Of a stretch of DNA of 64,000 bases, positions 22,085-57,164 are shown piece by piece. The stretch lies in assembly GCA_008632985.1 (NCBI GenBank), contig QPGO01000180.1, positions 35,332 through 99,331 of the forward strand, given 5' to 3'. Under the pieces are notes generated by a model. It was given only the letters and a program-made list of their open reading frames with translations, had not been told where the DNA came from and searched no databases. Each line of letters opens with the position of its first letter. Positions within the stretch are counted from its first letter, which is position 1. Origin of the DNA: Psammoneis japonica (lineage: Eukaryota). Made by a program: the position numbers and the translations under genes.

Positions 22085-25000
22085 TCACTTTTTAATCGCT
22101 AGATTCCTAAGTGATTGCATAGCTTCCTCAAATGTGCCGCTAGCGAGAATCCTCTTGGGATCGTGTTCATTGGTTTCCACGCAGATATCCAATACTGCGG
22201 AAGCTAAATCAGATTTGTCTCCGTTTGTAGAAAGTAGCCGTGCACTGGTATTCCAGATCAACTCAAGAATATCCTGTGGTATGCCCTCCAGCCGTCTTTT
22301 GGAAGCTTGCGTGCTGACCGACGTGTCAATGGCAGTGATAGCCAAACTCCGAGCAAGCATGGCCGCGGCCAATAGGAAGAAGAAACTTGTTGCCGATCCT
22401 CGAACCGCAGATTCATCGGATCCAATATCAACTAAAACGGAAGCAAACATATCTAGCAGTTGTGGAGCATCGCGAGAAGAGCCGTCTTTGCGGGGCAAAC
22501 CACCGGTAAGGTTTGCTTGAAGGGCCTTGGCCATGGCTGAGCGGTCCGTCACTTCCGATGGCAGAGTCAGGAGACGAAGTACTTGTCGGAGTCTGCGAAT
22601 CGTCTCGCATCGAATCTTGACCGGGAAACCTGGCCGCAAGAAGAACCGGACGCATTCGGTAAATGCGTCGTACTGAGCGCCATATTCCAAGTAAGCATTG
22701 CACAGGTCACCAACAAAGTTCTCTAGCGCTGTCATCTCTTTTCCGGACAGAGTTTCATTCTCGTTACCAAATAGGCTTTCCACGACTTGTTCGTCCTCGG
22801 GGCTTGTCCTTTCGGCAGATTTCTCTCTTTTCTTTGCGGCTGGTGAGTGATTTACGCAAGCTTTGATAAAATCTTGTTCAAGAACCACCCTTCCAGGATT
22901 TTGAGTATACAGAGCAAACAAAAGGCTGGTGCAATCTCTGATTCTTTCATCTCGGATTACCGCCTCCGCGTACAAGCACACGTTGAACAAGTGGTAAAGC
23001 TTTGCGCCGTTTGGGATTTGTCTCGAATATAAATTCTGGTTTTGCTCCATTTCCGCCAATAGTTCCAGACTAGAAATAAGAATGGGAGTCACATCATCAC
23101 TATCATCGTGTGGTGCTGCTGTCTCAGATGGAAGAGCATCAGAAAAAACTGAAAGGACTTGCCACAGCCACAAGTTCCCTATTGGAAGAAGCAGCTCCGA
23201 TGAAGCGAGGGGACGCTTTGATTTTTGGCTATCAGCCGTACTTAACAGAGTGTCCACGTCAAAGTAAGGGATGTTGAGACTGTCACCCAAGCGATTCGCT
23301 GCAAGCTGGTAGCTATGACTGGTCTGGATTCTGGATTGCTCCGACGCATACATTTCCCGGAGAAAAATTGTTGGTAGAGGCGATTGGAGTTCTACTTCAG
23401 ATTCTTTTGACAACGTCTGAAAGAGAAACAGATTTCGAAAGACAAAGTCAGCAGTGGCCTCCTCCCCGTGCTGCAATCTAGCCAAGAGGGTAAACGCGAC
23501 CGAACGAATCACTGGAACACATGTATTGGCTTCCGAGTCAAGGCGAGTTTCGACGAGAAATCGACAAAGAGCCAGATGTGCGTTATTGAGCCACCCGATG
23601 CGTGCCCTAGAGACATGCCTGGAAGTTGACAATTCTAGAGAGACTGTTTTGACCTCGTATGAAGATATTATGTCGAGCAGCCATGTCCGACACTCGGTGA
23701 CTAATTCTTCGTCTGTGTCCAAAGCGATCGCATCTAACCTCAACAAGAACTGTAGAAAGGTTTCCAAGAGGCGGCACGACAAAGCTTCGTACAACACAGA
23801 TGACGCATCAGGACAGTCGATAGCCAACAATCTTATGGCAGCTGACTCTAAACAAGATTTCACGTCGACATTTTCCCACATGGCGCGGCCAACCTCGCAA
23901 TATCGTTTCGCTTCCAGAGGTGCCTTCTTCACTCCCCTTTCTAGCAGCAATGACGATGAAACAAGACGAAGACACGCGGCAAGCATTTTGAAACCGTCTA
24001 GGTCGACGTCATTTGCCGACTCCAGCCGAGGAGATGCCCGTGACTTTAGGTAGTCAATGCATTGGTTCGCCAATGAAGCCAGCCAATCGGTATTCAATAT
24101 GGCGTCGCTTGAAAACCGTCCGTTTGACATATTCGGATCAGACCGAGCCATTGTTGCGCAGTCACAGGTAAGAGCAAAGGCAGATAGATATTCCGCCGCG
24201 ACGCTGTAGCACTCTGGCCGCTCCGAGTCGTTGCACAGCAAAGCTTTCGAGATATGTGGCACAGCGAGAGTGACAAATGTTTGCACATGGTTAAGGGCTA
24301 GCCCATAGCGCACCATTGTTCGCCACCACATGGCTGTGTGTCTTTGGACTTTGTACTCGATCTCTGATGCGGCTGTCTGACCCAGGATTGGAGGTGCAAC
24401 GAGATCAAAAGGCAGTGATGTTGCAACAACTCGAGATTGGCGTGTTAATGTATTGAACAAAATCAGCAACGGGACTGACAAATAATCTGAATTTGAGTCG
24501 CCACTGTTGTTGACATCTGGATTGTTGTAACTTGTTGACGGGACCAAATCAAGTCGCTGCAAAAGACGTGGTATGATCTCGGCATGCTGTGCGATTGCTG
24601 AGGCAGCACCGGGGGATCGCACAGCCAGCATTGCTAAAATTCCGCACACGGCTTCAATTGCTTCATCTGGTAGGTTGTACTGCAGAAGCTTTGCCAGACG
24701 TGGTAAAATCCGCATACGGGAAAGAAGAGTCCAGCTAGGGTCCTTGTGAAAGGCTTCTCCGTCTGCTTGGGCAGAGCTTGTAGAGGAAAGTGTCGAATAC
24801 GCCACTGTATCCTTACCCATTTTGAGTGGTTCTCCGATGCTAACGTCACTATAGCATTCATACAAAGGGGGAGTCAATATACAGTCGTCCATAAAGTACT
24901 CTTGATAAATCTGAGCGGCATTTGCAATCGTGTCTGTTTTGGAGTGCTTAGTCACATCGACAACGTGATCCGGAGGGGCTCTCAAACACATCAAGGCGTA

Positions 25001-26083
25001 GAGTGACTGTAGCGCATAGGTGTGAAGCAGTAGAACACCTCCACCAGGAACTTCATCCAAAAGACATCGCAGCGACACAGGGAGCAGAGTCGGAGTCTCA
25101 AAAACAGATGAGCCGTCTGTGCCACCGACGGCTTTACCCTGCCGGCATTCTACAAGTGTGTGGCTCACAGTCCGAGCCGCCCATAATACTTGTTGCGGAG
25201 AAGTAGACCGCAAAAGAACGCAGGCCTGGTGAAACTCATCGTCGTCCATGTTAACATTCATTGGGATATCAGGCAAGGATGCGTTTGCGTATCGATCGTC
25301 TTCGTCTATGCGTTGTTGCGTTGACTCCTTTGAGATGCTTTTTTGTGGTAGCGCTTTATTTTCCCTCTTTACTGTTGTTAGACTTTGTTGTTGCTTTTCT
25401 ATTGGTTTGTATTTGGCCGAAGGCCTGTCTGTGCCTGTATCACCCTTCTTAATAGACTTTTGTGAGCGTTTTCGGTTCTTCAAAAAATCTATTGTTTCAG
25501 GCGAGAGAGCAGCACGCAGCTCGGATACGTTTTCCAGTATTTCTTCCTTGGACATTTGCGCCAACATGGCATCCGCATCTCGTCGACTACTCTCTTGCAA
25601 AAGCTTGGCACTGTCGTTCTCCGACTTGTGCTTTGTTTCAGGCTCTGCCACATGCTTTTCTTTCTTCTTTCCTTGCTTCGGCTTGACAAAAGTCCCCAGC
25701 GGAACGGTGACCGACGGTGATCCCAGCGGAGACACAACGAGGGGCGAAAGTCGTCGTTGCTGTCCTTGTTGATGGAAAGGCCGTTCCACGATGGATCCTA
25801 CCACAGTAGGCGCAGCTGGAGATTCAGGGGGCTTTGGTATCTTTTCTTTTATTGTGGCCGCCACAGGAGGTTCCCTCTTGTTGTCGTTTCGTCGATTACT
25901 CGGTCTCGTCACGGTGGCAGCGGGTCGTTCACCGGGATCATCATAAATCATTGCCATTCTCTTTTCTAAGGCCGACTTTTTAAACGCCGACGGTGCTCTT
26001 TTTGTTTTTGGGACTGTTTGCTCACGACTCAGAGAAAGCAGGGAGGTCATGTCTTCGTCACGTATGCCCTCGGTGTTTGCCAT
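22085..26083 (-). CDS. RPAP1: RNA polymerase II-associated protein 1 (RPAP1/Rba50/IYO-like)
   Basis: MSKEEILENVSELRAALSPETIDFLKNR (RPAP1_N-like) and LLRSTSPQQ (RPAP1_C-like) followed by ARM-like helices. Likely start is MANTEG at 26083; the upstream ORF extension runs into TE sequence. Confidence 0.8.
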   Translation of the reverse strand: MANTEGIRDEDMTSLLSLSREQTVPKTKRAPSAFKKSALEKRMAMIYDDPGERPAATVTRPSNRRNDNKREPPVAATIKEKIPKPPESPAAPTVVGSIVERPFHQQGQQRRLSPLVVSPLGSPSVTVPLGTFVKPKQGKKKEKHVAEPETKHKSENDSAKLLQESSRRDADAMLAQMSKEEILENVSELRAALSPETIDFLKNRKRSQKSIKKGDTGTDRPSAKYKPIEKQQQSLTTVKRENKALPQKSISKESTQQRIDEDDRYANASLPDIPMNVNMDDDEFHQACVLLRSTSPQQVLWAARTVSHTLVECRQGKAVGGTDGSSVFETPTLLPVSLRCLLDEVPGGGVLLLHTYALQSLYALMCLRAPPDHVVDVTKHSKTDTIANAAQIYQEYFMDDCILTPPLYECYSDVSIGEPLKMGKDTVAYSTLSSTSSAQADGEAFHKDPSWTLLSRMRILPRLAKLLQYNLPDEAIEAVCGILAMLAVRSPGAASAIAQHAEIIPRLLQRLDLVPSTSYNNPDVNNSGDSNSDYLSVPLLILFNTLTRQSRVVATSLPFDLVAPPILGQTAASEIEYKVQRHTAMWWRTMVRYGLALNHVQTFVTLAVPHISKALLCNDSERPECYSVAAEYLSAFALTCDCATMARSDPNMSNGRFSSDAILNTDWLASLANQCIDYLKSRASPRLESANDVDLDGFKMLAACLRLVSSSLLLERGVKKAPLEAKRYCEVGRAMWENVDVKSCLESAAIRLLAIDCPDASSVLYEALSCRLLETFLQFLLRLDAIALDTDEELVTECRTWLLDIISSYEVKTVSLELSTSRHVSRARIGWLNNAHLALCRFLVETRLDSEANTCVPVIRSVAFTLLARLQHGEEATADFVFRNLFLFQTLSKESEVELQSPLPTIFLREMYASEQSRIQTSHSYQLAANRLGDSLNIPYFDVDTLLSTADSQKSKRPLASSELLLPIGNLWLWQVLSVFSDALPSETAAPHDDSDDVTPILISSLELLAEMEQNQNLYSRQIPNGAKLYHLFNVCLYAEAVIRDERIRDCTSLLFALYTQNPGRVVLEQDFIKACVNHSPAAKKREKSAERTSPEDEQVVESLFGNENETLSGKEMTALENFVGDLCNAYLEYGAQYDAFTECVRFFLRPGFPVKIRCETIRRLRQVLRLLTLPSEVTDRSAMAKALQANLTGGLPRKDGSSRDAPQLLDMFASVLVDIGSDESAVRGSATSFFFLLAAAMLARSLAITAIDTSVSTQASKRRLEGIPQDILELIWNTSARLLSTNGDKSDLASAVLDICVETNEHDPKRILASGTFEEAMQSLRNLAIKK

Positions 26084-26279
26084 AATTAACTTTTGCTTTT
26101 CAATTCCTTCAAGAAACAGACTGCCGCATCGGAGTACTACCATATGAATGGATGCGCTCTGTTTGTCCAAAAGTTTTTGTGGTTTCGTCTTTATCTTTCG
26201 TCTTCTGACCGGCCGTCTGTCAGAGGTCGTGTCAAGGTGGCGCTTGATTGCGAGAGCATTCTTGGAGAGTGGAAATCTG

Positions 26280-27190
26280 TTGGTGAGCCATGGAACCAAG
26301 TCCCGGAAAAGATGGGCAAAGACACAGCTGAGTGCAGAAGCACAAAAGAATTGACAAAGGAGTGGGTGCATGATGCAGTTGCCAAGTCATGATGACAGGC
26401 AGATGAGCACATGGAAACCACAAAAAAGATTGGCGCACATGTGGGAAGAATGTTTGGGCTGGAGATGATGAAGCACTGGTGTCTCTGAGGCAGGAGAGAG
26501 AATGCCAGAAGAGCCAGATTGTCCATCAGGAGACACCGCATCAGAAAAGGACAAGCCAATCTGGGGCAAGAAGCACAGTCAATGTGTGAAGCAGAGTGCA
26601 GTCTGCAAGATGCGGAAGGCACAAAGGTGTTTGCTGCAATCATGGGGCAATGCACGAAGGCAACTCATCACAAGCTTGAAGGAGTTGTGCAATTTGCAAG
26701 AATCACAGAGGAGTGGGACATGACAGCACTGCTAAGTGTTCTCTCAAGTTGATCTTGTTTGATGCAAATGAGGAGACAAACCCGCACATCCAGGTGGTGG
26801 TCAAGGCTTGGAGGCAATTGGCGCTGTTGGCACTCATTTGTCAAGATGAAAAGGAGGTGCTTCAAGGCTGTTTCAATCATTGGTTCATGAGCATGGTTGA
26901 GATGGCAAAAACATCCTGTGGCAGGATTGTCCCAGAAAAAATTGCCAAAAAAGAAAATGGGTTTGGCAAGGATGCTGATGGCATCTGGTGGAGCAAAGAG
27001 AGGAACAAGTCATCAGCAGTGATGCACCCCAATTCAGCTGAGGAGGCACCATCACAGGTGTTGGAGGACACATGTGGGGCACCCGCAAAAGCCTGAGGAA
27101 GGCATGAGTTTTGCACAGAGTGACAAGAAAAAGGTCACATGCTGGAAGTGTGGCAAAGTTGGACACATGAGGAGAGATTGTCCTGACAGT
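26280..27190 (+). mobile_element. Degenerate LTR-retrotransposon gag remnant
   Basis: KVFAAIMGQCTKATHHKLEG (diatom Copia-gag-like) and zinc knuckle CWKCGKVGHMRRDCP at ~27140-27185; frameshifted. Confidence 0.75.
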
Positions 27191-27199
27191 GATCATTTG

Positions 27200-30100
27200 T
27201 TGGTGGAGTCACACAATGTGGACCATGGGAGTTGACAGAAAGGTCAACATCGTGTTGGGTGGCATGATTTCCAAGTGTCATCCTCTCATGCTTGATGCAC
27301 ACAAAGTCAATCAATTGACAACTTGTGTGAGGGAGTGTGTTGAAACATTGGGGCTGGGGGGTGGCTTTCATTGTGCGGATGGGAGACAGAGTTGCAGTGT
27401 GAGATGTGGCAACAATTGTGGACAACGTGGCAAGCTTTTGCACTTGTAACTTGGATTCAGTTGTGGGTCTTGTTCTCACTTTTTAGCTTCTGCAACTGAG
27501 TGGCATGCTGATGACAGTTGACAACATCAGCAGTTGATGTGTTTGCAAGCCATGTGGCGGTGAGCAGGGAGACAGTGAGACCAAACACGTGCCAGCTGGG
27601 AAACTTCAAAGCTCCAATGTGACATGTTTCTTTTCTCACTTGATGACAATGACTTTCTTGGTCCATTTGTAAGTCCATGTTGACAACAGCACACCACTCT
27701 CTGGCAAGAATGTGCTCTGGCTCCTCTGATGACTTTTTTGTGTGCTTCAAAGCACTCCTGCTGGCAACATGTGGCACAGCTGCAAGATTGAACAAAAAAT
27801 GACTCACCAAGTCACTTTGACAGGTTGAACAACACAAATGAGCAACAAACAATTCAAGTTTGGTGGCAGAACAACTTGCAAATGCTGCGCACAAATTGTT
27901 TTGTTGTCAGCCATGCCCACATTGTGCCAGCCACAAAAAAAAGCAACAGCTCCGCACACTGAGAGAATTCACTGTGCTTCTCCATGGTTGATTGAAAAAG
28001 CTGGCTCTTCTTGCCCATCTTTGTTTGTGTGTGCTTGACTGGTTTGTTGCCATGCTGCAACACTTGTGTTGCTTCTGTGAACTGGGTCTGGCGACAGTTT
28101 GTCACACTGGGGTTTTGGTTTTGATTGACAAGTGAGGCAAACAAGCCACAGATTTTTTGCTGCAAGGCTCAAACTGCTTTGCAGCTAAAAAAAAAATTGC
28201 AGCTTTTTAGAGCCACCATGAGGCAGGCCCTGGTCTGAGATGAATCAAACTCCGCATCATCAACTCACATGGAGGCAGAGCAAATTTTTGTCAAGGATCT
28301 GTGCTCTTGAGAACTTGTCAAACTTCGGATGCCACAGCTCTGAGATGCCACATTTGCCGAACACTCTTCCTGATGCTGTGTCTGCACCTTGTTGTTGGTT
28401 CTGCCATGACTGTGGCATGTAGAAAGAATGACAGCCACCCCTCAGCATGCAAACCTCTCCCAGGGACAGCTCCAGAAACCCTGCAGCACAAAAAAGGGGC
28501 AATGTTGAAACACAAAGCACAGCATGCAAAGAAAGTTGAGAGGACACAAAAAATGTGCAAAACCTGGACCCCCCCCCCTTTTTGAATTTTTGCCACAATC
28601 TTCCTGCATGAAGCCAAGTGTTCTCAAGATCATCTTGCCTCCCCCCCCCATGCTGTGTGATGCACCAAATTCTTCCACTGAGAACATTTGTGGTCTGTGT
28701 GTTCTTTTGACCATCAATTTGAGCCATGAGCCAGAAGAAAAAAATCACACCAACATTGTTCCACAAGGAACAAGATGTGCTGAATTTGCATGGACTTGGG
28801 TTGCACTGGGCCACATGGAAAGGTAGAAGAGCCAGCCAAAAATGTTGGAGCACCTGCCTGGGGCATTCCCAAGCACCAAGCCCAGCAGATCTGCCTCAAA
28901 AGACCCAGACATTGTGTCCCGCAAGGCTGGCATCTGTGCTGACTCTCAGTGCAGCACATTTGCACTTTGCCGCCAGCTTCTTGGTGCTCATCCAGCCAAT
29001 TTTGTGCCCCAATTTGTTCCATCATCTTTCATTGGCTTGCAAAAGGTCTTCTGCTGCTTGTGCTTGCCACATGTGTTGCAGTGGACTGCAGCTGTGAAAA
29101 CATCAAGCTCCCATGTGCAGCATCTTTCAACTTTTTTGCAATGAATGCACAAAGTGCATGACGCCATGATGCCAGCGTCAGGGCATTTCCTGCATTCTCC
29201 AAGGCACCAAGCAGACCAGCCTGTCTGTCCATTGATCCCCACAGGCTCCATCAGCTCTTGTTGGTGCTTTGGCATGACTGCTCTGGTCTGGGTGCAAAGC
29301 TCTGTGCCTTCACCCCAATTGCAAGATTGCAAGATTGCACCACATGAAAAACATCAGCACTTCACAGTTGGTTGGCTTTCTGCACAAAAAAAAAAGACAA
29401 TTTGACTGGCTGTCACACTGCTCACCAAGCTGTCACTGTCGGTGTCACCAGAGTTTTGGCAAAGAAGATGGACAACAAATTTGGAACATGTCTTGACACC
29501 CAGAAATTTGCAAGTCAGTGGCAGTCCCTGGCAAATTGCAGCTGGCAGTTTCTTTTCTGATCTTTGTGTTTTGCCAATGCAGGGAGATGTTTTGGCAACA
29601 AGATGAGTTGACTTGACAACTTGCATTTTCTTGTGGGGGTGTGGGGGTCGGTTGAGTGAACTCTGGTGGTCCAACTCTCTGCATTGGGTCTGATCCACTG
29701 ACTCATTCTTTGATTTCTCTTTGTGACAGCTGGCTTTCCTCACAATTTTGGCTGTGGCAAGAGAAGAGCAACTGGTGCTTTTGATGCCATTTGAGGCTCT
29801 GTTCATCTTGGGACAAGGTGAGGCAAGCAAAGCTGTTTGCTGGGTGGGTCGCTGTTGCTCTCAATGATGCTCCAGGCTTCTTTTGGTTTGGGACAAGGTG
29901 AGACCAGCAGTGTTTGCTCAGTGGCCCTTTGTTTGCTGGCACTGCTCTGTTTTGATCACCAGTTGTGGGTGTGGGTGATGTCGACAATTCTGCTCTCTGT
30001 CTGGGTTTGTTGTGTGCTTTTCTTTGTTGCTGCTCTTGTTGTGATCATGAGTTGATTCAACCAACAACACAGCAATTTCTGGTTGATGCCAGTGCCCCTC

Positions 30101-31780
30101 ATTGGCTTTTGGCTGGCTGAGGCACAAAGCTCCAGACAGAGATCATCATGTGTGCCAAACCTGTGCCCAAAAGAGGGGAAACACAGGAGAAGTTCAGCTC
30201 ATCTTGCTCTGCCTGGTCAAGGAGCAATGCCGCACACACCTTGGTTTTTGCATGGCTGACAGGCCCTGGTGCAGATTGCTCTGCACAGCTGCAAGTGGTG
30301 GCTGCCCATTTTCCACTCTTCTTGAACAGGTCATCACACCTGAGAAGATTTCATTGAAGCCCAGCTTGGGGCAGTGTTCAGAGCATGCCTTCTCTTTGCA
30401 GTTTGCACTGTCCCTTTGTTTTTGAAAATTGCAACAACTCTGGAGGAAGGTCCTGTGCTGCTGTGGGGCCAAAAGTCATCTGGTCCATGGTGCCTCTGGA
30501 AATGGTGTGTCAGACAAAGCTGCCAAGTTCCTCTGGTTGTTGCTCAATGACTCTTTTGCCAATGTGTGGTGTTGCTGCAATGTTTTTGTGTGCTGTGGAG
30601 GGTACAGCAAGAAGTTGTTAGATTTGTCATCACAGCCAGTTTGTGCCTGAATGCCTGGGTTTTGCTGTCCATTTGCAGTGCTTGTCTTGAAGTTTCCCCC
30701 CTTTCTTTTGCCACACACACTTTGAGGAGGATCTCCCATCTGACCATGTGCCAAGACTTCATTGTCTGCTTGGCAAGAGGGCTTGAAAGTGCACTTTTCT
30801 CACTGGCAAGTTGTGGTGGCTTTCCCAGGCTTGCAGATGCTCTTCTTGGGTTGTGCTTGCAATGCTGCAGGTTGTGCTGTTCTTGTCAATCTTTGCCTGG
30901 CACATTTGTGCTGAAGTTTGTCCCATCTTTCTGTCACATCTTTTCAGGCTGGAACGTGCTTTTTATTTTCTTCCTGTTCTTTGCAGTGGGCACTGCAATT
31001 TTGTTGCTTCCATTTTTGCAGCCACTTGCTTGTCCCACACACATGAGAGAGATGCAGGCACTGATGTCAGAAAAACAAACCAGAAGAGCCAGAGTGTTCA
31101 TCAGCCAGGCAACGCCACATTGGAGAAGGACAAGGCAATCTGGGAGAAGCAATGCAACAATCACCACATGAAACACAGGGCATGATCTAGAAGACACAGA
31201 AGGCAAGGGCATTTGGCACAATTGTGGGACAGTGCACAAAAGCCATCTGCCACAAGGTTGAAAGAGTGATGGAGCTTGAGTGGGCTGCAAAGAGAGAGAT
31301 TGGGCAGCACTGTTGGAAATTCACAACATTGGGAATGACTTGAGTGATGCAAAGGGAGCACTGGCTCTGACTGAGGGTGGGCGACTGCAGGCTTTTTAGC
31401 CTTGACAGTGTTCCTGGGCATTGTGGAATCTTCTAGATTGTCCTTTTTCTTTCATCATGGCAGCTGCAGCATCAGTGTTGTCAAAGAATTTTTGGATGCC
31501 TTGCTGTTCTTCCAGATTGGTTGCTTTGTGAGGGGAGTTTATCTCGGCTTGAGCTGCTGCCTTCTTGTGGGAGGACGGCACACCCTTGCATCTGGTGCCA
31601 CACAAGTCTCAGGTGCCATGGTGATGTTTTGATGCTTTTTCTACATTGGAACCAATGCTGCTCTTCACAGTGCTGTCGACGACTTTTTCTCAATGTGATG
31701 CACCCCAGGTTGCAGACAATGCAGGGCTGGCATGAATTGTTTGCAATGCTTGCAAGCCACTCATTGCAGTGGTTTGCACT
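27200..31780. mobile_element. Mosaic of heavily decayed repeat-derived sequence, families not identifiable
   Basis: Near absence of TpA and CpG; flanked by recognisable TE remnants; no motif I can assign. Confidence 0.5.
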
Positions 31781-31782
31781 TG

Positions 31783-32175
31783 TCTCTGGAGATGTCATGG
31801 ACATTCTGATTTGAACAGGTTGCAATCCTCCTTGCTGCAACAATGGGAAAAAGCATGCCTCAACTGTTCTTTGTGCCCCTGCCAGCATTCTTTTCATCTG
31901 CAAGCAGCAGTGCATGCAATGTCTGTCATGTCACAATGACAAAGTCACCTTAAATCCTCACCATTCGGCTGTGCAATTTGGCAGCACCTTCCTCAATTTC
32001 CCATAAAAACCAGTGGCATGCAACATTCAGGTGGGCATTCATCACCAACAAACTTTCCGTCACAGCAGGCAGGCTTTTCACTGGTGCAACGGGCCGGCCA
32101 AGACAGCCAGCTGGCCACCCTCAGGGTCTCCCATCCTCCCATCACACAGATGTGGGTTGCCCTCTGTCATTGTCC
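31783..32175 (-). pseudogene. Mutated paralogous copy of the 3' end and downstream region of the gene at 35569-36564
   Basis: Aligns with 35344-35740; encodes PACCDGKFVGDECPPECCMPLVF versus intact PGYCDGMFVGDECPPECCMPVVF. Confidence 0.85.
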
Positions 32176-32559
32176 ATGTGCCCATGCACCTGTGGCTGTG
32201 TTGCTGACACATCAAACCAGGTCAACGATTTTGGTGCATCTCCTTGGCTCAATCATTGGCTTTGGCGCTGTCCCTTTGCAAGAGGACGGTCAATTGTGGT
32301 GTGATCTTCTTGGTGCAACTGGTCACAAATTGGATCCTTCCACTTTGTTGAGTGGATGTTCACAGAGGATGGTGAGCCACGTCTGTGTGCCTGCAAGGGT
32401 GAGCTTGACATCAAGATGTGCACAGCTGACTGCACCACCAAACAGTCCAGCACACAGCTTTCTGCACATTCACCACACAAGACCCTTGGCCACTGCAAGG
32501 CTCCAGTGGGTGCTCAAAAGGATCAGTTTAAATCTCTCAAGAAAAAGAGCAATGGCACA

Positions 32560-35290
32560 GCTCTGTTTCCATGCTCATGCCCATTGGACCACAACAAGGC
32601 ATGGACCCCCACTGTTTTGCTTGCCACCTGTCTTCAGCTGCACATGTTCTTCCAAGTGCTCATTTTTGACTGATGAACTTTTGGAGGTGCAGTGGAAGGT
32701 GTTGCGTGCTGCAACCACAAAGTGCAGATGCAACTGCAATGCCAAAAGAGATGTTGTGCATGGCCCATGATCTTTGGACAGTGGCAGTTTGAGATGATTG
32801 GACATGGAGCAGGGTGTTGCTCTCAGGTGTTGCAGTTTCTCCAATGGCTGCTGGCACAGCACAGGACAAATGCAACTTCTGTCACACATTGCAGTTGCAC
32901 AGATGGAGCTTTGTTTGGGCACCAGAGCCAGCTTCCTGAACAATGTGCATTCCAAGCTGCTGCACTTGGAGTCAAAATGGCCCATGTCTCTTCATTCCTT
33001 TCTTGCTTGCATCAGCGCCTGTGCCAAATTTGATGAGACTGTGAAGCTCTTCCACTGCAGCAATGCAATGGTCAGCACACCATGGATGCAGTCTTGGATT
33101 CTCTGGTGTCTTCTCTGACCACAAAGTCCACTGGGTGAGCTTCTGCCACCTGCACCTCTGAGCACTCTCTGCACCTGACATTGCACTTCTGAACAGATGC
33201 CACATTGACAGTGTGAAGCTGCAAAGTTGCCATTCTCTCATCTGGCAGCACCCACACATTGAGCCTGATCAAACAAGCTTGCCATCTGCTCATGCTTGGA
33301 AGCCATGGCATCACACCACATGCTCTCTGTTTTTTTGTGAGGGTGACCTCTTGGTGTCACAACACCCACTGAGGCAGTGGCAAGCTCTGGCTCCAGACAT
33401 GCACATGTCCTTTTCTGCATGCCACAAACCATTGAAGCAACTCTCACACATTTGTTCATCCAAAGGTTTTGATGTGTTCTCCATCATGATTGACAGCATT
33501 GTAGATTCTGTGGTGCAGCTTGAGTTGGCTCTGGAAGTTTTTCTTTTTGCATCTCCCTCCTGTCATGGCCAATGCCATTTGAGATGGCCAGTGGCACACA
33601 TGAAAGCTCAACTCTCTTGTGCCCCCACTTCCTGCCATCCCAGCCCCTGGTGGTGGCTTTCATGATGTGTTGTGTTTGTTGCCCAGGTGGGAAGCTGCGT
33701 TGTTCAAAGAGCTGACTTTGCACACACCAGCACTTGACAAGCTTGCAGATCTTCTTCTGTCTTCCAAAGCTGTGGTTGGGAGCAACAGCCCAGTCATCTG
33801 GTTTGGCATTGTCAAACACTTGCAGTCAATGGTGGTCCTTTGGTGGATTGTGTTGGCTCTGTTTTTGGCTTTGGGCCTTCCTCTTGCCATGCAGAAGCAA
33901 GCAGATTGCCACCTTTCCTTGCATTCCTTTTGTGAGTGAAGGGCTGCTTTCAGACAGTGCTCTTGCTTGGAGTGGATCTGCACTGTGACAACTCCTTGCC
34001 AATTCAAAACATTTCCAACTTTCACTTTGCACTTCCTTTGTCTGACAAAGAAGAGTCCTTCTTCGATGCACTTTGGCTCCACAGTGGGGTGCACTCATGA
34101 GGAAATTTTTTGCTCCTTTTGACAAATGGCGGCTTTCTCCATTGCAGGCAAATCCAGCACTTTTGTGTCAGCTCATTGGGTCAAAGGTCATGAGGACAAC
34201 ACTGTGCCTTGCAAGTTTCTGTCCCTTTCTGCCAAATTAAATGTTGAAGCTGATGGGCTGGCTGGCAGATGCACAGGAGCACACAATGGTGACACACCTT
34301 GCTGACACCTCACATGCAATGCTGCTTGGCAAGTTTGGTTTTGCGAGAGTCCTCCATCATGTCCAAATGCAAACCTGTCCTCTGGCATGAAGCTTGCAGC
34401 TTGGCACTGATTGAATGCATGACAAAGAAGTGTGCTGGCTGGCCAAGGAGGCATTTCCTTCCATCAACCGGAATGTGCACTCCAAACTCATGTCCTGCAA
34501 TGTTCACAGAAAGGTCAGCATGGTCAAGCTGGCTCAAGAGTTGCTGTCTGCAAACAAGGTTGTTCATTGATGCAATCTTGCTTGTCTGGATTGCTGCATC
34601 CACTGCCAGCATCCGATGGAGAACAGCGATCACAGAATGTTCCTTCAAGGCCTTCAAAAGAAATGTGATGACATTGACACTTTCCTGCCATTGAATGATT
34701 TGCTGTTGACAGCTCTCAAGTCTTGGCTTTGGGAGGAAATGTCATGCCCCAACAATGCACACACCACAGCATCTTTCCAGTTTTTGATTCTCAGGATGGC
34801 ACTGGCTGAAGACACATTTTCAGTGGCATTTTTGCACTTCTTGGAATGAGACTCAAACTGCACATCCAGTGGCCAGTGGCTGACACCAGACCCAGTTGTC
34901 CAATGACAAACAGTTAGATTGGGCTGTCACCACTGGAAGTTTTGTGTGGTCAAAGTGGTGGGACATCTGGGATTCCCACAACGATTCCATTCACAGTCAT
35001 GACTCTGAAACTCGGAAATCTTCTCAACGACGCAATGCGGAGGCTGAAGTCAAGACTTTTCATTCTTGTGCTGACTGTCACTTGGCAAGGGATGGAGCAC
35101 ACTTGTTAGATTCTGTGGAGGAGCACCTCACTCACTCCACGCATCGGTTGCGTAATTGGTTGGCTGTGGTGAAACCCATGTTCAAGTCGAGCATTCGTGA
35201 CGCTCGACGCTTCGCTGCTAGAGGCACTCGAACCATCGCTAGTTATTTCGGCGCGGCATCACCCGTGGGTGATGCCGATCCTGGCTACTG
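32560..35290 (+). mobile_element. 3' portion of a decayed non-LTR retrotransposon carrying RNase H
   Basis: RDVVHGP...LDMEQG (post-RT motif); RNase H C-terminus HWVKGHEDN...LNVEADGLAG at ~34174-34266; WDIWDSHN and terminal TIASYF...DPG. Confidence 0.75.
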
Positions 35291-35568
35291 TAATTGCTAT
35301 ATGCTCCTGCCGCACATTCGTGTGCTGGAGGTGTGGGTTAGAATCTCTAGAGATGTCATTGACATTCTGATTTGAGTAGGTCGCAATCTACCTTGCTACA
35401 ACAACAGGAAAAGGCATTGCCTATAAGTTACAAAAGCGCATCTTCATGCCCCCACCAGTGTTCTTCTCCTATACAAGCAGCACATGCAATGCCAGTCCTG
35501 CTGTACTAACAATGTCCCTTTAAATCTTCACCATTTGGCTGTGCAATTTGGCAGTACCTCCCTCAACT

Positions 35569-36564
35569 TCAAGGAATAAATACTACAGGCATGCAACATT
35601 CAGGCGGGCATTCATCACCTACAAACATTCCATCACAGTAGCCTGGCTGGTCACCGATGTAACCGCCCAAGACAATTATCGGGCATTCAGGGCCTCCCAT
35701 TGGCCCATCACAAGGATATGGGCCGTCTATTCCTATTGTTCCGCCAGGAGCAACCAGGAAGCGGTGTGTCTTAAAGTGGGGTTCCGAAAGCGCCGAGAGA
35801 AAGCGGTGGCGACGAAGCCTACTCGAGCCGTCGCCATCGCTGCCATCGTCCCCTCCATTACAGCGATTATCTTCCAGTAGAAAACAGGCCCTTCCATTTC
35901 CAATTCTCTTGACGCACACATGAGTCGCGTTGACCGTCACACCATCTCCAGAGAAGACATAATGTCCAAGCACGCTCCCTTGGCTATCAGGAGAGTTGAT
36001 GAGAGGAACAGTCATTGAGGAAGTGGTTCCGGAGAGCAAGGCGTTGTAGAATGTTCCTGCTGTCGATGCAAGCATGCACTGGTAGTCAGGAAACGACTGT
36101 TTAACCTCGATCGTCACAGTGTGACCAACTCCTTCTACCTTGACAATCTCGCCTGAGCTGGTTGTAACTAGATGAGCTTGAGAGTCGGTCTCCGTGTCCT
36201 TTTGAAGCTTCACCGCCAAATAGGCTGTCCCGATGCTTGCCGCGGCGAGCATGACTGTTAAAACGGCGAAGAAAATCATGAGCTTCTTGTATTCAGATAG
36301 CTTTCTCTCAACTGCAAGCTTGTCCTCGACGATCTTGGCAACCTTTTCCTCCGTGAGAAAGCCTCGTTGCGATGTGTCATACCTGCGCATTTCAGATTCT
36401 GTGCGGTCCAGGTAGCCCTTATTGTCACGATCATAGCGCTGAGACGTAACAGACAAGCGATCCGAAGTTCCACGACTTTCCACATCACCAACGCTCGGGA
36501 GAGGCTTAACAACATCATCAACCTCCTCCTCGTCTTTAGTATCTTCTTTGGGATCGTAGTCCAT
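35569..36564 (-). CDS. Hypothetical single-TM protein with EF-hand-like N-terminal repeats and a Cys-rich C-terminus
   Basis: Intact 331-aa ORF with normal Tyr/TpA content; YDRDNKGYLD and YDTSQRGFLT; TM LMIFFAVLTVMLAAASIGTAYLAV. Confidence 0.8.
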   Translation of the reverse strand: MDYDPKEDTKDEEEVDDVVKPLPSVGDVESRGTSDRLSVTSQRYDRDNKGYLDRTESEMRRYDTSQRGFLTEEKVAKIVEDKLAVERKLSEYKKLMIFFAVLTVMLAAASIGTAYLAVKLQKDTETDSQAHLVTTSSGEIVKVEGVGHTVTIEVKQSFPDYQCMLASTAGTFYNALLSGTTSSMTVPLINSPDSQGSVLGHYVFSGDGVTVNATHVCVKRIGNGRACFLLEDNRCNGGDDGSDGDGSSRLRRHRFLSALSEPHFKTHRFLVAPGGTIGIDGPYPCDGPMGGPECPIIVLGGYIGDQPGYCDGMFVGDECPPECCMPVVFIP

Positions 36565-36922
36565 CTCACGGTAGGGCGTTCTCCAATTTCAAGACGAAAC
36601 CTGTGAAATATGGTGACAGGTGAACCCAAAAGCCAAAAGGTGAGCTTGGCTTGAGGATACTTCGCGTGAGTATGGTATCTTGAAGATCGCAACTTCAGGG
36701 ATCTTCTCGGAATTTTCTTGGCATTGGCATCCAGCCATCTGGCATGCATCGGTCATCGGTCATATTGCTGTTTGAGGTAAAAATGTCACAGGGTTCGAGA
36801 GAGAGAGGTGTTTCTCTTTTTTTTTTTTTTTTTCTTCGACAACAATCTTCCGGGTTCCTCTCAATAGTCACGTAGAATCGTACACAAAATAAGTGCTAGA
36901 ATTTACAATCGAGGATCAAAAC

Positions 36923-39200
36923 ATGCCGCTGTCAACCATGGCGAAGAACCGCCGCTCCGCTGCCAAGCGGCCCGCAACCAACCAACCAGAACACAATAGT
37001 CGTGCTTCAGTCGAGGTACAAAGCGTTCTGCCTCCAAATTGGACTTTTCTGATCCTGAAGAGGACTCACAAAGCCCACGAGAAGCCGAGGAGCCACAGCC
37101 TCAGAAACTTGTCATTCACTTCGACAAAACCGTGTTTGTTCCAAGCAAAAAGGGATCATCCAAAGAACCAAAACCAAAACTCTCCGAATTCAAGTTTGAA
37201 ACTTTGAAGCCGAATCGTCAGTTTGACACAACTGCATCATTCACCGAGGAAATGGTGCCTTTCATCACTGCGCAAATTGAAGCCGATGGTTGCTCCGCTT
37301 ACGACGAGCTTCCCGGCGGTGCGTTCATATTCACGAGACGTACCGGGAGGAAGACTAATTCCAACCGAGCAACGATGAAGGTAGAGGTTGTTGATTCAGA
37401 TGCAAAGTGGTTTGAGAAAATCCATTTGGCAGCTCAAGAGTGTCAAGAGGAGCTGGACGGACCGCTGCATTGCGAAATCGACATTGTTGCTGTGGCAGTG
37501 GAGGCCATTGTAGCTGAGGGTTCCAATGCATCTGGCTTGTCTGTGGATTCTAATCTGTTGGAAGTTCCAAATGCACCAGAGACACCGCTGAAACTTTTGA
37601 CATCTTTCTTGGAGCCTGCTCAGAAAGACCCGAACGACTCTGCTCGTGTCACCTCAAAGACAACTCCGATTTGCGACGTAGAGTACGATCTTTCGCGTTT
37701 CAAGCCAAACGGATCGGTGAGTACAAACCAAGATCTCTCTATGTTCGAACTGCTTTATCTGAACAATCATGCCTGCCACCCATTCTCTTTTGTCATGCAG
37801 AGAAGTGAGGAGGACATGTCTCAGCTCTCGCACTCGGACCGCGATGACGACGACGACGACGAAACGGAGACTTTCACGTTGACAAGGTTTTTTCGTGATG
37901 TGGTCAAGCTTGCTGCATCAAATCCTAAACTGCAGAAGCACTGTGGGTGGGACAAGAGTGCGGTTGGGGAAGACTCTAAGTTGTGGTTCGCAAAGAACCA
38001 CAGCTCGTCCGACCTGCAACTGTTCAACAATGGGGGGGAGGTCATGGAGCACTTTCGTTCAGAAGCAGGTGTCAAAAAACGAATCAAGGTAGTCAAGAAA
38101 GAGAAATGCCTCAAGATCCGTCTCGCGATTGGTCTCATGAACGAACAAGACATCCCTCTCGAGCACGACAAGTTCCACGTGGATCCTCCATCATGCTCAC
38201 AACCTGAATCGCAAGATGGCGAACCCTGTCCAACTTTTTCGCCCAGAACGAAAATTGCACCACAAAGGGAATCGCAGCAGTTGAAAGATGGGCCGGTTGT
38301 CATTTCCACCTTCATTGAAAGTCCACAAGGAGACGCCGAGAGTCCGGTTCAACACGGAATGCTGAAGGAGCATGGGGACATGTTGTTTGCCCATTTTGCA
38401 CATCCTTCACGGTTTAAAGAAGTTGAATCTGCAAAGTTGGAAGATCATCCAGCTGACAAACTCAACAGAATTGTTCTTGGAGACAGGCACAGCATCAAGA
38501 ATTGTGGTGGTGTTCCAATCGAGAAGGGCAAATTCAAGAAGCGACGTGGAAAGTTTGTCACGCTGGCGGAACACAAACATGAGAACCCGGATGAGACGGA
38601 CACAAGAGGAGTGGCAGGAGGAGAGACAGGAGGATTGACAGGAGATGTGGCTGCACTGTCCATTCTTGGTCAATTCTTGTCTAATCAACAATTGTTGCAG
38701 CTGGGCAGAGCGAATGTTCCAGTTGCACCTGCTCCTCAAGCTTCTGCTCCAGCTGCACCGGGACGCCCAACTGAGTTGGTTGTCAAGCTCAAGCAAATGA
38801 AGCACCACAATCGGCAAGACTTTGTTGTTCTCAATGAGGAACAGGCGAACACTGTGATGATCAACGATTTGCTTTCCATGCTTGAAGAAGAGAGCGAACC
38901 ATTTGAGTTAGACCAGCACATTGAAGGCGAAGCGTGTTCAAAATTCTTTCTTCAAGTTGAAGGTGACGATGAACCTGTTTTGATTGGGAAAGACAAAACA
39001 AATTCTTGGTCCATCTCGAAACTCCGGCGAGTTTTCAAATTGAAGGAATCATTTGATTTGTTGGTGGAGTTTGACTCGGCACCAACGAAAGACAAGCCAT
39101 GCTTCCGCTTCAATCGCAAGACACTTTTAGAAGAACAGACATTGGGGACTCATCTTTCACCGGCACAGTGGCGAAATTACTGCTCTAGATGCTGCTCGAG
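36923..39200 (+). CDS. Accessory ORF of unknown function inside the TIR transposon (probably mutated)
   Basis: Long ORF 37039-39333 with a probable in-frame 84-nt intron 37717-37800 (GTGAGT...GCAG); likely ATG 36923 in another frame; true stop uncertain. Confidence 0.6.
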
Positions 39201-39433
39201 ACTGGATGTTTGCCAATCAAGTTGTTGCCACTCAAAACTGGCTAGAGCGTGCCACTCGATGCGATGCGATGACACAAGCAGAGACCACACTAGACTTGAC
39301 TACCCAACAGACCACACGACACAACTGAGCTAGAGACTGGCTAGACTGTGCTGCTCGACACGACACCACTAGAGACTGGACTGTGCTGCAGGAGATGACA
39401 GCACTCGAGATTGGACATTTGCTTCTTGGGCAA

Positions 39434-40579
39434 TCAACCTTGAATGCTCCAATTCTCCATCCCCGGCACCCCGCATTTTCGAAAGTGCTTCGCTGCTATG
39501 TCGGGAGTTGCTGAAAGCAACGCCCCACAGTGCAAGTCTTGCCAATCTGCCTGATGACCCTCAAGTTGTCCATGGCGACGGAGGCATGCTTCGCACACTG
39601 AAAACATTTTTTCAATTGGATTGAGGTCGGGACTGCAGGGTGCAGTGTACAGCAACCTCGCGTTCTTCTTTTTCTCTGTCAATCGTTTGATGCGACGGTC
39701 AAAGTGCGTCGATGCGTCATCCATCACTGCCACCGAATTTTTCTCTCCTTTTTCACAGTCACCCAGCTGTGGTGCCAAATGTGTTTCTGCCCATTCATAA
39801 AATCGGTCTGAGTCCACAGTTCCTGCTGCTCCCCTGACGGTGTCACAAGCTTCAACAACAAACCCATCAATGTTGCAAGCTGCAAGGCATGTGCAGCGCA
39901 CTGCATCCTGGAACCATTTCTTCAAAACAAGGTCTTCGTTGCGCACCCCCCAAGCCCGACGGCGTCTGGCAGCATTCTTGTCTTTGTGTGTCTTGTCGCA
40001 AAAGATCACTTGACATGGGTCGAAAACAAAAAGTGCCAAAGCCACCTTGCACTCATGTCGGAGTCGCTCGTTTCTCTCCCTTGCAACGGCAGCGTGTGTC
40101 TTTAGAGAGCATCCCAATTTGTCATGAAGGGCTCTCCAGACAGTGGACGGATGAAACAGAGTTCCAGTTTCAATGCACAGATCGTGGACAAACTCATCAA
40201 GATCATGCTCAGGATTGCGCTCAAGAATCTTTCGAAGGGCTTCGACGTGCCTTGGACGAAAGTGCCGTCCTCCTTGCCAAGCCCCAGCAGACCGTCTCAA
40301 AAGTCTTTTCCACTCTCGTGACGTGTCGAATGGTGGTTCTCCATAAAAGAGATGGTGCTTGCACCAACGCCGGAGTTGACGTTCGCCAGTGCGAAATGTC
40401 CTTGCGCCCTGCCTCAGCACGGCGGCGAGGCTTGCCGTGCCTGCCATCAGTTGGACCTGATCAACAATGTGTGCAATGGCATCTCTTTGAGTCGTTCGGG
40501 ATGCCTTTCCAAAAGCAAGCCCTGCTGGAGAGAGCAATGTGATGAAAAACGCGAACAAACGGACCAGCTTCATTGCCAT
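39434..40579 (-). pseudogene. IS630/Tc1-like DDE transposase with mutated motifs
   Basis: HTH region (FHPSTVWRAL); IFCDKTH (cf. DET), VMDDASTH (cf. DNA), APCSPDLNPIEKMF (cf. PYSPDLNPIE). Confidence 0.88.
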
Positions 40580-40749
40580 TGTTTCTGATCTTGTGGTGGC
40601 TGTTTCTCAAAATCTAGTGCTCATTTTGTGTGCGATTCTACGTGACTATTGAGAGGAACCCGGAAGGTTGTTGTCGAAGAAAAAAAAAAAAAAAAGAGAA
40701 ACACCTCTCTCTCTCGAACCCTGTGACATTTTTCCCTCAGACAGCAATA

Positions 40750-41950
40750 GAGGACAAATGCTGTGTTTTGGCTCAAGACAGAAAAGTGTTGAAATCTTGT
40801 TCCTGAGACATGTGAACGCTTCGCACATGAAGATGATTGTTGCCAAAATGAGCAACCAAAGGCAAAGCACCACAAGCCAAAAGAGAGGTGCTCCAATGCC
40901 TTGTGTTAAAAAGCAGGCCCTTCGAAGAATTGCAAAGTCGTCAAACGCCACCAGTGCCATTGCTCCCGACCATCCCATGACTGCTCCAAACATGAGGAGG
41001 ATGCTCCCAAGCCGACGGTTGCGATTGACACACGCAAACCAAAATGAGTCCAAGAGGGTTTCAAGTTCCATCCCTTTGTTGTGGGATGCTTTGTGCGTGA
41101 TGGGGATTGTTGCCAAAACAAGCACAAAAGGCAAAGTGCTGCAAGCCAAAAGAGAGGTGCTCCAATGCTTCATGATGAAAAGCAGGCCCTTCGAAGAACT
41201 GCAAAGTCATCAAACACCACTGGCGCCATTGTTCCCAACCATCCCATGGCTGCTCCAAATGTGAGGATGCTCCCAAGCCAATGGCTGTGATTGACGTGCA
41301 CAAACCAAAACGAGTCAGAGAGGGTTTCAAGTTCCATCCCTTCATCACGGGACGCTTGGCACGTGACGAGGATCATCACCAAAATGAGCAACCAAAGGCA
41401 AAGCACTGCAAGCCAAAAGAGAGGTGCTCCAGCAATGCCTCGCAACAAAAAGCAGGCCCTTCGCCAAATTGCAAAATCATCAAACACTGCCAGTGTCATT
41501 GTTCCCGACCACCCCATGACTGCTCCAAACATGAGGATGCTCAAGAACCCCAGCGTGTGCACAAGGGCACGTCCAGCTGCAGTGTTTGGCGTGAAATTTC
41601 CATGACCAACAGTGGTCACAATTGCAAAACAAAAATGTGCCCCAGCTGCAAGATGCACTTCACAAGGCTCGCTGCCAATGCCACTTTGTGTGAGCCTCGA
41701 GGAACGTCATGTTGTCACCACAAAGAGCAACCAATCGAAAGCAATCATGCATCCAAGCATCAAATGCACCATGATGGTGGACTGCAATCATTGTGCAAAA
41801 GTCATTCCATGTGACTTTGTTGAGTTCCATGCAGAGCTGTGATGAACAATTGTCTCGACGCGGTTCTGGCACACCCCCGACCACAACAAGGATGAGACGC
41901 TAGATTGAACACGTCTCACACCCCAACTGCAAGCACAAACAAACAAACGA
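40750..41950 (-). pseudogene. Two-pore-domain K+ channel pseudogene with an internal ~268-bp tandem triplication
   Basis: HFCFAIVTTVGHGNFTPNTAAGRAL (P1, cf. TTVGYG) and SIATVGLG/SITAIGLG (P2); repeat units recur at ~40845, ~41114 and ~41381; frameshifts. Confidence 0.85.
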
Positions 41951-42792
41951 CTCAAATTCACAATCCATGACAGTCCACAATTGTCATGTGTGAGCCATTT
42001 CAGGTGATTGTGTTGAGTCCAAAGTCGAGCTGCTAGCATCATGCACCATCAACGTGCAGTGTGCGGTTCCCACTTCCCGCTGCGTGGTTGCTGAGGACAA
42101 CCCACAATCCACAACTCAATCCACATCACTCACAAAAGCTTCAACGCTTCAAATGATGGAGTGTCAATGCCTTGCTCTGCAACATGACATGACACAAATG
42201 ACTGTGAGCAAGACAAGGGCAGGCATCACCCCCAAAAACATGAAAACACAACATTGCACCACATGGTGCAAGAACACTGCTGAGCACAATGAATTTTCTC
42301 ACCTCAACATCACAATGTGCACATGTCAGTCATGGGATGGGGGTTGTTGGCAGTGTGGAGCCTGTTGTTTTTGAAATGAGCATTGCAGAGACGAGCGCCA
42401 TTTTTGCCGTTGGTGATTTTTGAATTTGTGCTCTTGCATCGTTGGAAAAACAGGGCATGGTCTGACATGCGCAGGGAGAGTTGCAACAAGAAATTCTGCC
42501 CAATTTCCACTTGGCGTGCAGTCTGTCCACACCCAGGCAAAAATCTTGAAATGAAGAAAGGTCCATTGTCCTGCCGGCACTGCACCAAGAAAGATGCAGC
42601 ACAAGTGCATGGGCAGGTGTCCACACATCCACAGTCCACACCACAGTGACTCTGCTGGCCTCATTGCAGAGATCCCCCCCCCTCTTTTGACACAGGCTCA
42701 GTTTTTGACACCCAGTGCCTGTCGTTTGTGACACATGTCACACAGGCAGGCAGGAGGCTTTTTTTTGTCAGGTTGCAAGACCCTTCTTGTGC

Positions 42793-42932
42793 GTGCCACA
42801 TCTCTCATCTCTGCACCATCTGCAAGGTGCTTTTTGCACTGTGAAAACCCTGCTGGGCACTGCCAGTGCTGCCACACCAAAGGGTGTGCCACATCTCTCA
42901 TCTCTGCCCTGTCTGCAAAGTGCTTTTTGCAC
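42793..42932. repeat. Direct repeat pair (~47 bp, period ~93)
   Basis: GTGCCACATCTCTCATCTCTGC...TCTGCAA.GTGCTTTTTGCAC occurs twice. Confidence 0.85.
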
Positions 42933-42937
42933 AGTTG

Positions 42938-49734: not shown

Positions 49735-49929
49735 GGTTGACGTCTGTCAATCCACCTGTCGACTGCACGCAATCGTGCGCTTCAATTTTCAAATTCCGCC
49801 ATCAAAACTCTGCTCGACATTGCAGTCATAATTTTCAGTCAACGACTTTTGCAACAACAACAGCCACTAGTTTACAACCTTGAGCATCAGCTCTTTCGAC
49901 ATCTGCAGTTGCACATTGGTGTGGCAAGT
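49735..49929 (+). repeat. 5' LTR
   Basis: Ungapped match to 56970-57164 with 14 mismatches by manual alignment. Confidence 0.95.
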
Positions 49930-56969: not shown

Positions 56970-57164
56970 AGTTGACGTCTGTCAATCCACCTGTCAACTG
57001 TGCGCAATCGCGTGCTTCAATTTTCAAATTCCGCCATCAAAACTCTGCTCGACATTGCAGTCATAATTTTCAGTCAACGACTTTTGCAACAACAACAGCT
57101 GCCAGTTTGCAACCTTGAGCATCAGCTCTTTTGACATCTGCAGTTGTACATCGGTGTGACAAGT
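56970..57164 (+). repeat. 3' LTR
   Basis: Follows the PPT directly; followed by TSD CACAT. Confidence 0.95.

Follow-up and report, generated by a model that had tools for sequence, protein, structure and literature searches.

The closest described counterpart of the locus reported here is found in the rhizarian alga Bigelowiella natans, in which integrated DNA of nucleocytoplasmic large DNA viruses (NCLDV) as well as of virophages undergoes A:T>G:C hypermutation restricted to the dinucleotide TpA (Mettrop et al., bioRxiv 10.64898/2026.01.13.699255). According to the accessible text of that preprint, mutation-accumulation lines exhibit a TpA-only spectrum in which 230 of 231 changes are A:T>G:C, the de novo rate is elevated approximately 1000-fold and is on only in some lines, retroelement domains are enriched among TpA-poor sequences (a claim extended to transposon-type domains), and the enzyme is not known, ADAT2 having been proposed. 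Two further systems are relevant: repeat-induced point mutation (RIP) of Neurospora crassa, for which the accessible part of one report gives duplicates of >65% identity and 100 bp as predictors of the affected sites (PMC7296669), and the DNMT5-dependent CG methylation of transposons in the diatom Phaeodactylum tricornutum, in blocks with H3K9me/H3K27me3 (PMC9998398, likewise in its accessible part). No report of TpA hypermutation in a diatom was found in the literature searched, which consisted mostly of papers available without subscription. In this work we examine 64,000 nucleotides of Psammoneis japonica (GenBank assembly GCA_008632985.1, contig QPGO01000180.1, positions 35,332 to 99,331 of the forward strand), a stretch referred to throughout as the window, in which a zone of about 9 kb has had nearly every TA step turned into TG or CA and ends sharply inside a dead retrotransposon of the type without long terminal repeats (non-LTR). 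The host is a diatom, as reflected in 24 silicon-transporter matches in its genome (best E 2e-208); a 1511-codon open frame with three silicon-transporter domains was observed at G000:C38:226311-230342.

Results

The features central to this work, in coordinates of the window, are the following.

26193..35190, no strand: TpA-erased, CpG-poor zone, with an observed/expected ratio (o/e) of 0.04 for TA and 0.12 for CG
32187..35341, plus strand: fragment of a non-LTR retrotransposon with 45 matches in the genome
35150..35341, plus strand: spared tip of that retrotransposon, with 9 TpA and 16 CpG in 192 bp
31783..32175, minus strand: copy A, dead, related to the 35569-36564 gene's 3' coding end and to the sequence downstream of it, with 2 TpA
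35344..35740, minus strand: copy B, the last ~57 codons (35569-35740) of that gene and 225 bp downstream of it, with 23 TpA
35569..36564, minus strand: intact 331-codon gene, an uninterrupted open reading frame (ORF) and the right-hand neighbour of the zone

The depletion is regional within the window. Gene-rich stretches of the same window, which serve as the control, have o/e values of 0.57 for TA and 1.01 for CG, and ApA is not depleted in the zone (o/e 1.21, control 1.17). Intact minus-strand genes flank the zone on both sides, an RPAP1-like gene on the left and the 331-codon gene on the right. The last TpA on the left lies at 26192, and TpA loss from 26193 begins about 50 bp upstream of the presumed start of the RPAP1-like gene, with CpG thinning setting in some 100 bp farther into the zone; the right edge falls at about 35150-35215, inside the retrotransposon fragment. 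The TpA-poor and CpG-poor zones almost coincide, the former seeming 100-200 bp wider at both edges (26193-26304 and 34980-35190).

The right edge is most clearly resolved by the repeat family itself. For this purpose the final 720 bp of the window copy were aligned to 24 further family copies overall, 20 of the 45 family matches having been taken as loci; L051, L053 and L048 were left out of the family distances, and L031, with its short flank, out of the flank correlation. Columns of the TpA type are kept by the window copy in 1 of 20 cases in 34620-35150 and in 4 of 7 in 35150-35341 (p=0.009), while CpG columns are kept in 2 of 26 cases in the body and 10 of 12 in the tip (p=8e-6). Since single family columns contain TA, TG and CA, TA is taken to be the starting state. 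The 9 TpAs of the tip compare with 0-4 in the other 24 copies (one has 7), and the tip is also the best-matching part of the family. Divergence at sites outside TpA and CpG amounts to 0.41 and 0.33 for the element body, against 0.30 and 0.26 among other copies, and to 0.18 for the tip, against 0.19; the excess in the body (34640-35149) includes transversions, and the tip is without excess. The decay of TpA and that of CpG thus both come to a halt within a dead element of a repeat family, on its gene-facing side. We observe TpA-directed A:T>G:C change on both strands, within a sharp-edged zone and regardless of coding role or copy number, and unconstrained TpA outside the zone survives.

The retrotransposon, a single fragment that fills the gap between copies A and B, was missed by the original prediction, which was made from the letters of this DNA and presented A and B as a mutated and an intact copy of the same host sequence. 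The pair is real, with 35344-35722 aligning to 31783-32156 at 74.6% identity (E 2e-65, self-BLAST of the window), and B was correctly recognized as the 3' end and downstream part of an intact gene. The predicted TpA contrast likewise holds, since A retains only two, both in TAA context (CTTAAA and CATAAA), against more than 20 in B, of which 10 lie in the coding part and 13 in the untranslated 225 bp; all eight substitutions that had been listed are present in the alignment. Among the 20 B TpAs with an aligned partner, 13 are TG or CA in A (8 CA and 5 TG, hence both strand directions), 2 are kept and 5 are otherwise changed, and A is without any TpA absent from B (sign test 13:0, p=2.4e-4). 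Changes of the A>G/T>C type affect 15 of 41 TpA bases as compared with 17 of 161 bases elsewhere (p=1.8e-4). That the two are an intact and a mutated version of one sequence is not confirmed, however: 56 of 323 columns outside TpA and CpG differ, transversions make up 32 of the 84 differences, and B cannot serve as a pristine template because its non-coding part has 2 CpG, fewer than any of the 1093 overlapping control windows. TpA in that part does not fall below the control, with 13 in its 225 bp as compared with a control median of 9, and the mix of TpA contexts in B is control-like. The stretch 35344-35600, with CpG lost (2 sites) and TpA normal or high, is the reverse of most zones, and may record an earlier methylated state.

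Copy A is probably the remnant of a paralogue's 3' end. Within a 24-codon core of A chosen post hoc there are 5 synonymous and 5 non-synonymous codon changes against B, and third positions account for 7 of 11 differences; over all of B versus A no codon-position bias was found (12/15/16 and 13/15/13), and coding constraint across the whole of B was rejected in the absence of such a bias. A genome search with the read-through frame of B gave only B, A and one weak locus, and that frame had no match among the best 150 homologues of the gene (best E 0.42).

Three short relatives elsewhere in the genome (L003, L004 and L005) provide outgroups for the pair, covering at most 35348-35490; a search with L003 as the query gave no further members. 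Relative to L003, 115 columns hold 12 lineage changes in A and 11 in B, another 12 being confined to L003, and the three sequences lie at equal distances from one another (26/115, 27/115 and 28/127). Eight B TpAs fall in the covered stretch (35363-35489). Four of them (35389, 35397, 35429 and 35472) are common to L003 or L004, and L003 has just two of the eight. Three of the eight listed substitutions are reached by outgroups and five are without one: CG is ancestral at GTCGCA according to L003 and L004, the outgroups split at GCTACA (TA in L004, TG in L003 and L005), and CTCTAG lies at the edge of the outgroup alignment. The predicted polarity keeps its 13:0 direction, with clean outgroup confirmation at GTCGCA only. 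As a pair, A and B are weakly polarised and too old to prove one-copy targeting.

With regard to the mutation spectrum, the window copy was compared with L046 (G000:C356:17500-26500), a long family copy with roughly three times the TpA of most others and TpA-richer surroundings, which makes it a useful family reference. In these alignments, which are ~60% identical and partly saturated, A>G is seen at 36/49 TpA, 54/171 ApA, 21/168 GpA and 6/198 CpA bases, and C>T at 45/78 CpG and 3/180 CpA. Many element copies (L047, L049, L052) have lost TpA yet kept most of their CpG. Surviving TpAs are enriched for TAA/TTA (63/95 vs 462/1190, p=2e-7), in agreement with an earlier remark on the two TAA-context TpAs of A, and ATAT, ATAC/GTAT, ATAG/CTAT and GTAC are nearly gone (retention of 0-0.03 vs 0.10-0.22). 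Over 30000-35183 the assembly differs from contigs of short-read run X1 at 4 positions, one TA>TG and one CG>TG, where TA/CG-type sites make up 49 dinucleotides in 5184 bp, or ~2% of positions; these differences hint at recent activity.

The repeat family is assigned to the non-LTR retrotransposons because its copies have an APE-type endonuclease (PF03372, in the ORF of two longer copies at E 1.3e-10 and 2.1e-8, and absent from the window copy) and a GTTTT-type 3' tail (22 of 24 other copies, and missing in the window copy). A search of Pfam returned no reverse-transcriptase match for any of 4 ORF pieces, although a GYVDD motif is seen by eye; this motif reads GYVDD in the TA-richer L046 and GCVDD, GHVDD or GCVAD in other copies. 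The window copy is cut at its 5' end near the YxDD-like motif of a presumed reverse transcriptase, starts at 32187-32193 beside the end of A (4 of 10 longer loci share this 5' start), and stops at 35341, a position ~70 bp away from where the tail would lie and 3 bp ahead of B. The geometry would fit a target-site duplication made by the element, with A ending within ~30 bp of the element start and B beginning 3 bp after its end. Against this, the tail is missing, the A/B distance of 17% compares with 34-38% for the element (8 copies tested), and A, B and L003 are equidistant. An assembly artefact at the junctions was rejected, as X1 contigs span both A/element and element/B (31218-35183 with 1 difference, 35159-36792 with 0), with the proviso that run X1 is possibly from the source sample itself.

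The 331-codon gene belongs to a large unnamed family (357 homologues by HMMER) and has a weak EF-hand-like match and a hydrophobic stretch; in the genome it has 7 other matches, copy A among them. Among the best 150 of the 357 homologues the match never extends beyond residue 275, an Atlas search with residues 262-331 gave no usable match, and in a word-index protein search with the 331-aa product 0 of 2806 candidates passed, versus the 357 from HMMER. Its TpAs number 36, of which 21 survive despite having a silent route to TG/CA; in the coding part of B, 6 of 10 have no such route. A single deep, gap-free contig of run X2 covers 35419-36551 and looks transcript-like, though the run is labelled 'DNA?', and missing X2 cover over the zone is no evidence. 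Run X3 contributes one 168-bp contig at depth 3.

Two further features belong to the zone and its left border.

22085..26143, minus strand: intact RPAP1-like gene, left-hand neighbour of the zone (PF08621, E 2.8e-8)
26505..27232, plus strand: decayed gag-like remnant with a zinc knuckle (PF00098, E 3.1e-8)

The remnant, which we take to be gag from motif likeness, has a 69%-identical piece at 31080-31267 (self-BLAST of the window). The targets identified, which make up part of this repeat-rich zone, are the non-LTR element, the zinc-knuckle remnant and gene remnant A; of 12 short ORFs taken from the zone and from the tip of the element, 11 had no match in Pfam at its curated cut-off. Elsewhere in the window, additional TpA-erased islands are seen at 14000-15200 and 41000-43900, the second with tandem and inverted repeats (40835-41542, 43601-43921). 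Direct repeats of 194 bp and 93.3% identity (49736-49929 and 56971-57164) are likely an LTR pair, and the 50-64 kb block around them is TpA-erased with CpG mostly retained. Inverted repeats of 142 bp and 93.7% identity (36763-36904 and 40609-40749) surround a 777-codon open frame (37000-39333) for which a Pfam search gave no match. The unit they delimit (36763-40749) is TpA-poor with CpG largely kept, has a read depth raised several-fold and loose ends at 36763, and is probably a multi-copy DNA transposon of no named family.

Discussion

It is our view that a region-targeted mutator, acting at the DNA level to turn TpA into TG or CA on silenced blocks alongside CpG decay, is the probable explanation of this locus, and which sequences are hit seems to depend on position, not on selection or repetition. 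The mutator would act on genomic DNA inside silenced blocks, and its TpG and CpA outcomes would both stem from a single event, A>G after T, seen from one strand or the other; CpG in the same blocks would decay as expected from the deamination of 5-methylcytosine. All that lies between the two live genes, gene remnant A included, would be rewritten up to an end point ~150-190 bp inside the dead retrotransposon, before B is reached, and B would have kept its TpAs because its location, partly within a working gene and partly behind it, is beyond the zone. By analogy with methylated transposon blocks, we infer that the zone corresponds to silenced, CG-methylated chromatin (heterochromatin), with transcription or open chromatin setting its edge. 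Given that the zone ends inside a non-coding repeat and that B lies outside it, neither selection nor RIP-like pairing is needed. Of the two causes that had been offered at first, domain targeting or selection, the former is supported, and for a reason that had not been given, namely the edge inside the retrotransposon; its chromatin component remains conditional, as above.

As to the chemistry, adenine-to-inosine deamination by a host enzyme of the TadA/ADAT family is a candidate that we favor by a small degree. ORFs resembling TadA/ADAT2 were located by motif at L058 and L061, such genes being near universal, and both the TadA/ADAT-like and the ADAR/ADAT1-like (L065, L066) labels are presumptive assignments by motif. 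No deaminase expansion is seen in the genome among its PF00383 and PF02137 matches. The ORF at L058 (G000:C38:7368-7679) is 3.5 kb away from L003, the outgroup match, which is probably a coincidence. A tandem dCMP-deaminase-like gene (L056, L057, L059 and L062) occurs with the same score on two contigs, C41 and C317, so that some parts of the assembly may contain both haplotypes. The genome also has 27 matches to the methyltransferase family PF00145, and clustered, partly broken DNA-methyltransferase domains (L075, L076, L079 and L080, on C297 and C10) may be carried by mobile elements.

Several observations weigh against the positional mutator as we have formulated it. The CpG-poor, TpA-normal distal 225 bp of B is not accounted for by the model. 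Two of the eight covered B TpAs look gained, at 35377 (CA in A and all three outgroups) and at 35470 (A and L003 agreeing against B), and two more are without clear polarity. For TpA, the comparison at the tip draws on 7 columns, and although copies with TpA-rich flanks tend to have more TpA at their ends, the correlation with flank TpA density is not significant (Spearman over 23 copies, p=0.055 for the tail and p=0.12 for the last 190 bp). The comparison with L046 likewise has an elevated A>G change at ApA (0.32), though the reverse change is equally common. The deaminase set is ordinary, with 9 PF00383 and 4 PF02137 matches. Last, the four X1 differences are maybe alleles or assembly errors, their direction is not fixed, and X1 is possibly the source sample.

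The most serious alternative retains the positional targeting and regards TpA loss as a by-product of error-prone repair, involving neither a deaminase nor a defence, in which a Y-family polymerase such as Pol eta would fill gaps at repaired T:G mismatches or at methyl damage in methylated DNA. Pol eta prefers A after T or A, and the raised ApA>ApG change in the window copy is in keeping with this preference, as are the near coincidence of the two zones and the excess divergence of the element body, transversions included, from which the tip is free. However, ApA is not depleted in the zone, the copies that lost TpA and kept most CpG (L047, L049, L052) indicate that TpA loss does not await CpG decay, and changes of other kinds are not in excess in A relative to B (12 vs 11). 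In B. natans, moreover, the 230 A:T>G:C changes among 231 are all at TpA (bioRxiv 10.64898/2026.01.13.699255, accessible text). We consider this account a reasonable one that is nonetheless rather unlikely.

A partly reversed polarity, in which TpA and CpG were already scarce in the common ancestor of A and B and ordinary C>T and G>A substitutions restored TpA in B once it had become part of the gene's 3' end, is a good deal less probable. It would accommodate the scarcity of CpG in the non-coding part of B, the states at 35377 and 35470, and the presence in L003 of just two of the eight TpAs. Against it are the four covered TpAs common to L003 or L004 and a TpA density in B at or above the control; it also leaves the spared tip unexplained, where TpA and CpG occupy family-conserved columns, and some TpA gains are to be expected at such divergence under either model.

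We regard a RIP-like process guided by repeat pairing as very unlikely. RIP is premeiotic in timing and depends on RID. The zone is rich in repeats, and A and B exceed the Neurospora thresholds of >65% identity and 100 bp (PMC7296669, accessible part); however, B, the best partner of A at a distance of 3.5 kb, is control-like in both the level and the contexts of its TpA, the best-matching part of the 45-match family is the very tip that is spared, and the change is A:T>G:C rather than C>T. The contrast with RIP drawn originally is upheld, on stronger evidence than the pair itself provides, namely that the change is opposite in kind and that a repeat piece with 45 genome matches is spared.

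Purifying selection, by which both copies would have been hit and the changes cleared from a functional B, is largely refuted and carries little weight even beside repeat pairing. The 6 coding TpAs of B without a silent route would be protected in this manner, but the 13 non-coding TpAs of B and the 21 of 36 in the gene with a silent route survive as well (a check that had been suggested at the outset), the non-coding part of B has drifted like A (11 vs 12 changes) and as such is not conserved, and the spared tip is part of a truncated, dead element. Editing of retroelement RNA or cDNA before insertion, an idea to which the retroelement remnants in the zone lend themselves, has a negligible probability, being contradicted by the mixture of TG and CA outcomes on one strand, by the change in gene remnant A, and by its halt inside one element on the gene-facing side.

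Should the positional mutator be correct, a TpA-directed process that a single preprint describes in a single alga is also at work in a diatom genome, where it comes close to saturation and is guided by position instead of homology. A single dead element crossing the edge would make the targeting rule testable over ~200 bp with no confounding by selection. There is a practical consequence too, in that TA-poor repeats lose tyrosine and stop codons, and would mimic long ORFs and give wrong element ages. More speculatively, and with doubt outweighing confidence, one may envision a chromatin-guided, DNA adenine-editing defence in diatoms, mirroring RIP, that would take its cue from a silencing mark and not from repetition, halt at the edges of active genes with a precision of about one nucleosome, destroy all that the zone contains, host-gene copies included, and be active to this day; with a rhizarian alga having it in common, it could be an old system, common to stramenopiles, alveolates and rhizarians (SAR), built on a natural DNA adenine deaminase working in chromatin.

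In comparison with the known systems, that of P. tricornutum would readily account for the decay of CpG in blocks rich in transposons, while TpA has 0 occurrences in the accessible text of its description (PMC9998398). The locus resembles RIP in its heavy, dinucleotide-biased transitions in repeat-rich DNA, which likely inactivate mobile elements. RIP, however, is a C>T process that creates TpA, where TpA is here removed (C>T at CpA being 3/180), and it follows duplicates and spills into their flanks, where duplicate B and the repeat tip are here spared by position (PMC7296669, accessible part); two defining features of RIP, C>T change that raises TpA and duplicates as the target, are absent. 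With B. natans the locus shares TpA>TpG/CpA change on both genomic strands, regional action and long-term TpA depletion with a gain of CpA/TpG. It differs in that erasure is near saturation (o/e of 0.04, vs 0.45 for an NCLDV region), that the host is a diatom whose identified targets are a retrotransposon, a zinc-knuckle remnant and a host-gene remnant rather than viral DNA, and that CpG decays too, neither CpG nor diatoms being mentioned in the accessible text of the preprint (bioRxiv 10.64898/2026.01.13.699255). Set against B. natans, moreover, the edge is here mapped to ~100 bp, and the process is read from sequence, not as a rate. By analogy, the diatom locus appears to work like the B. 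natans mutator, with a sharp positional edge.

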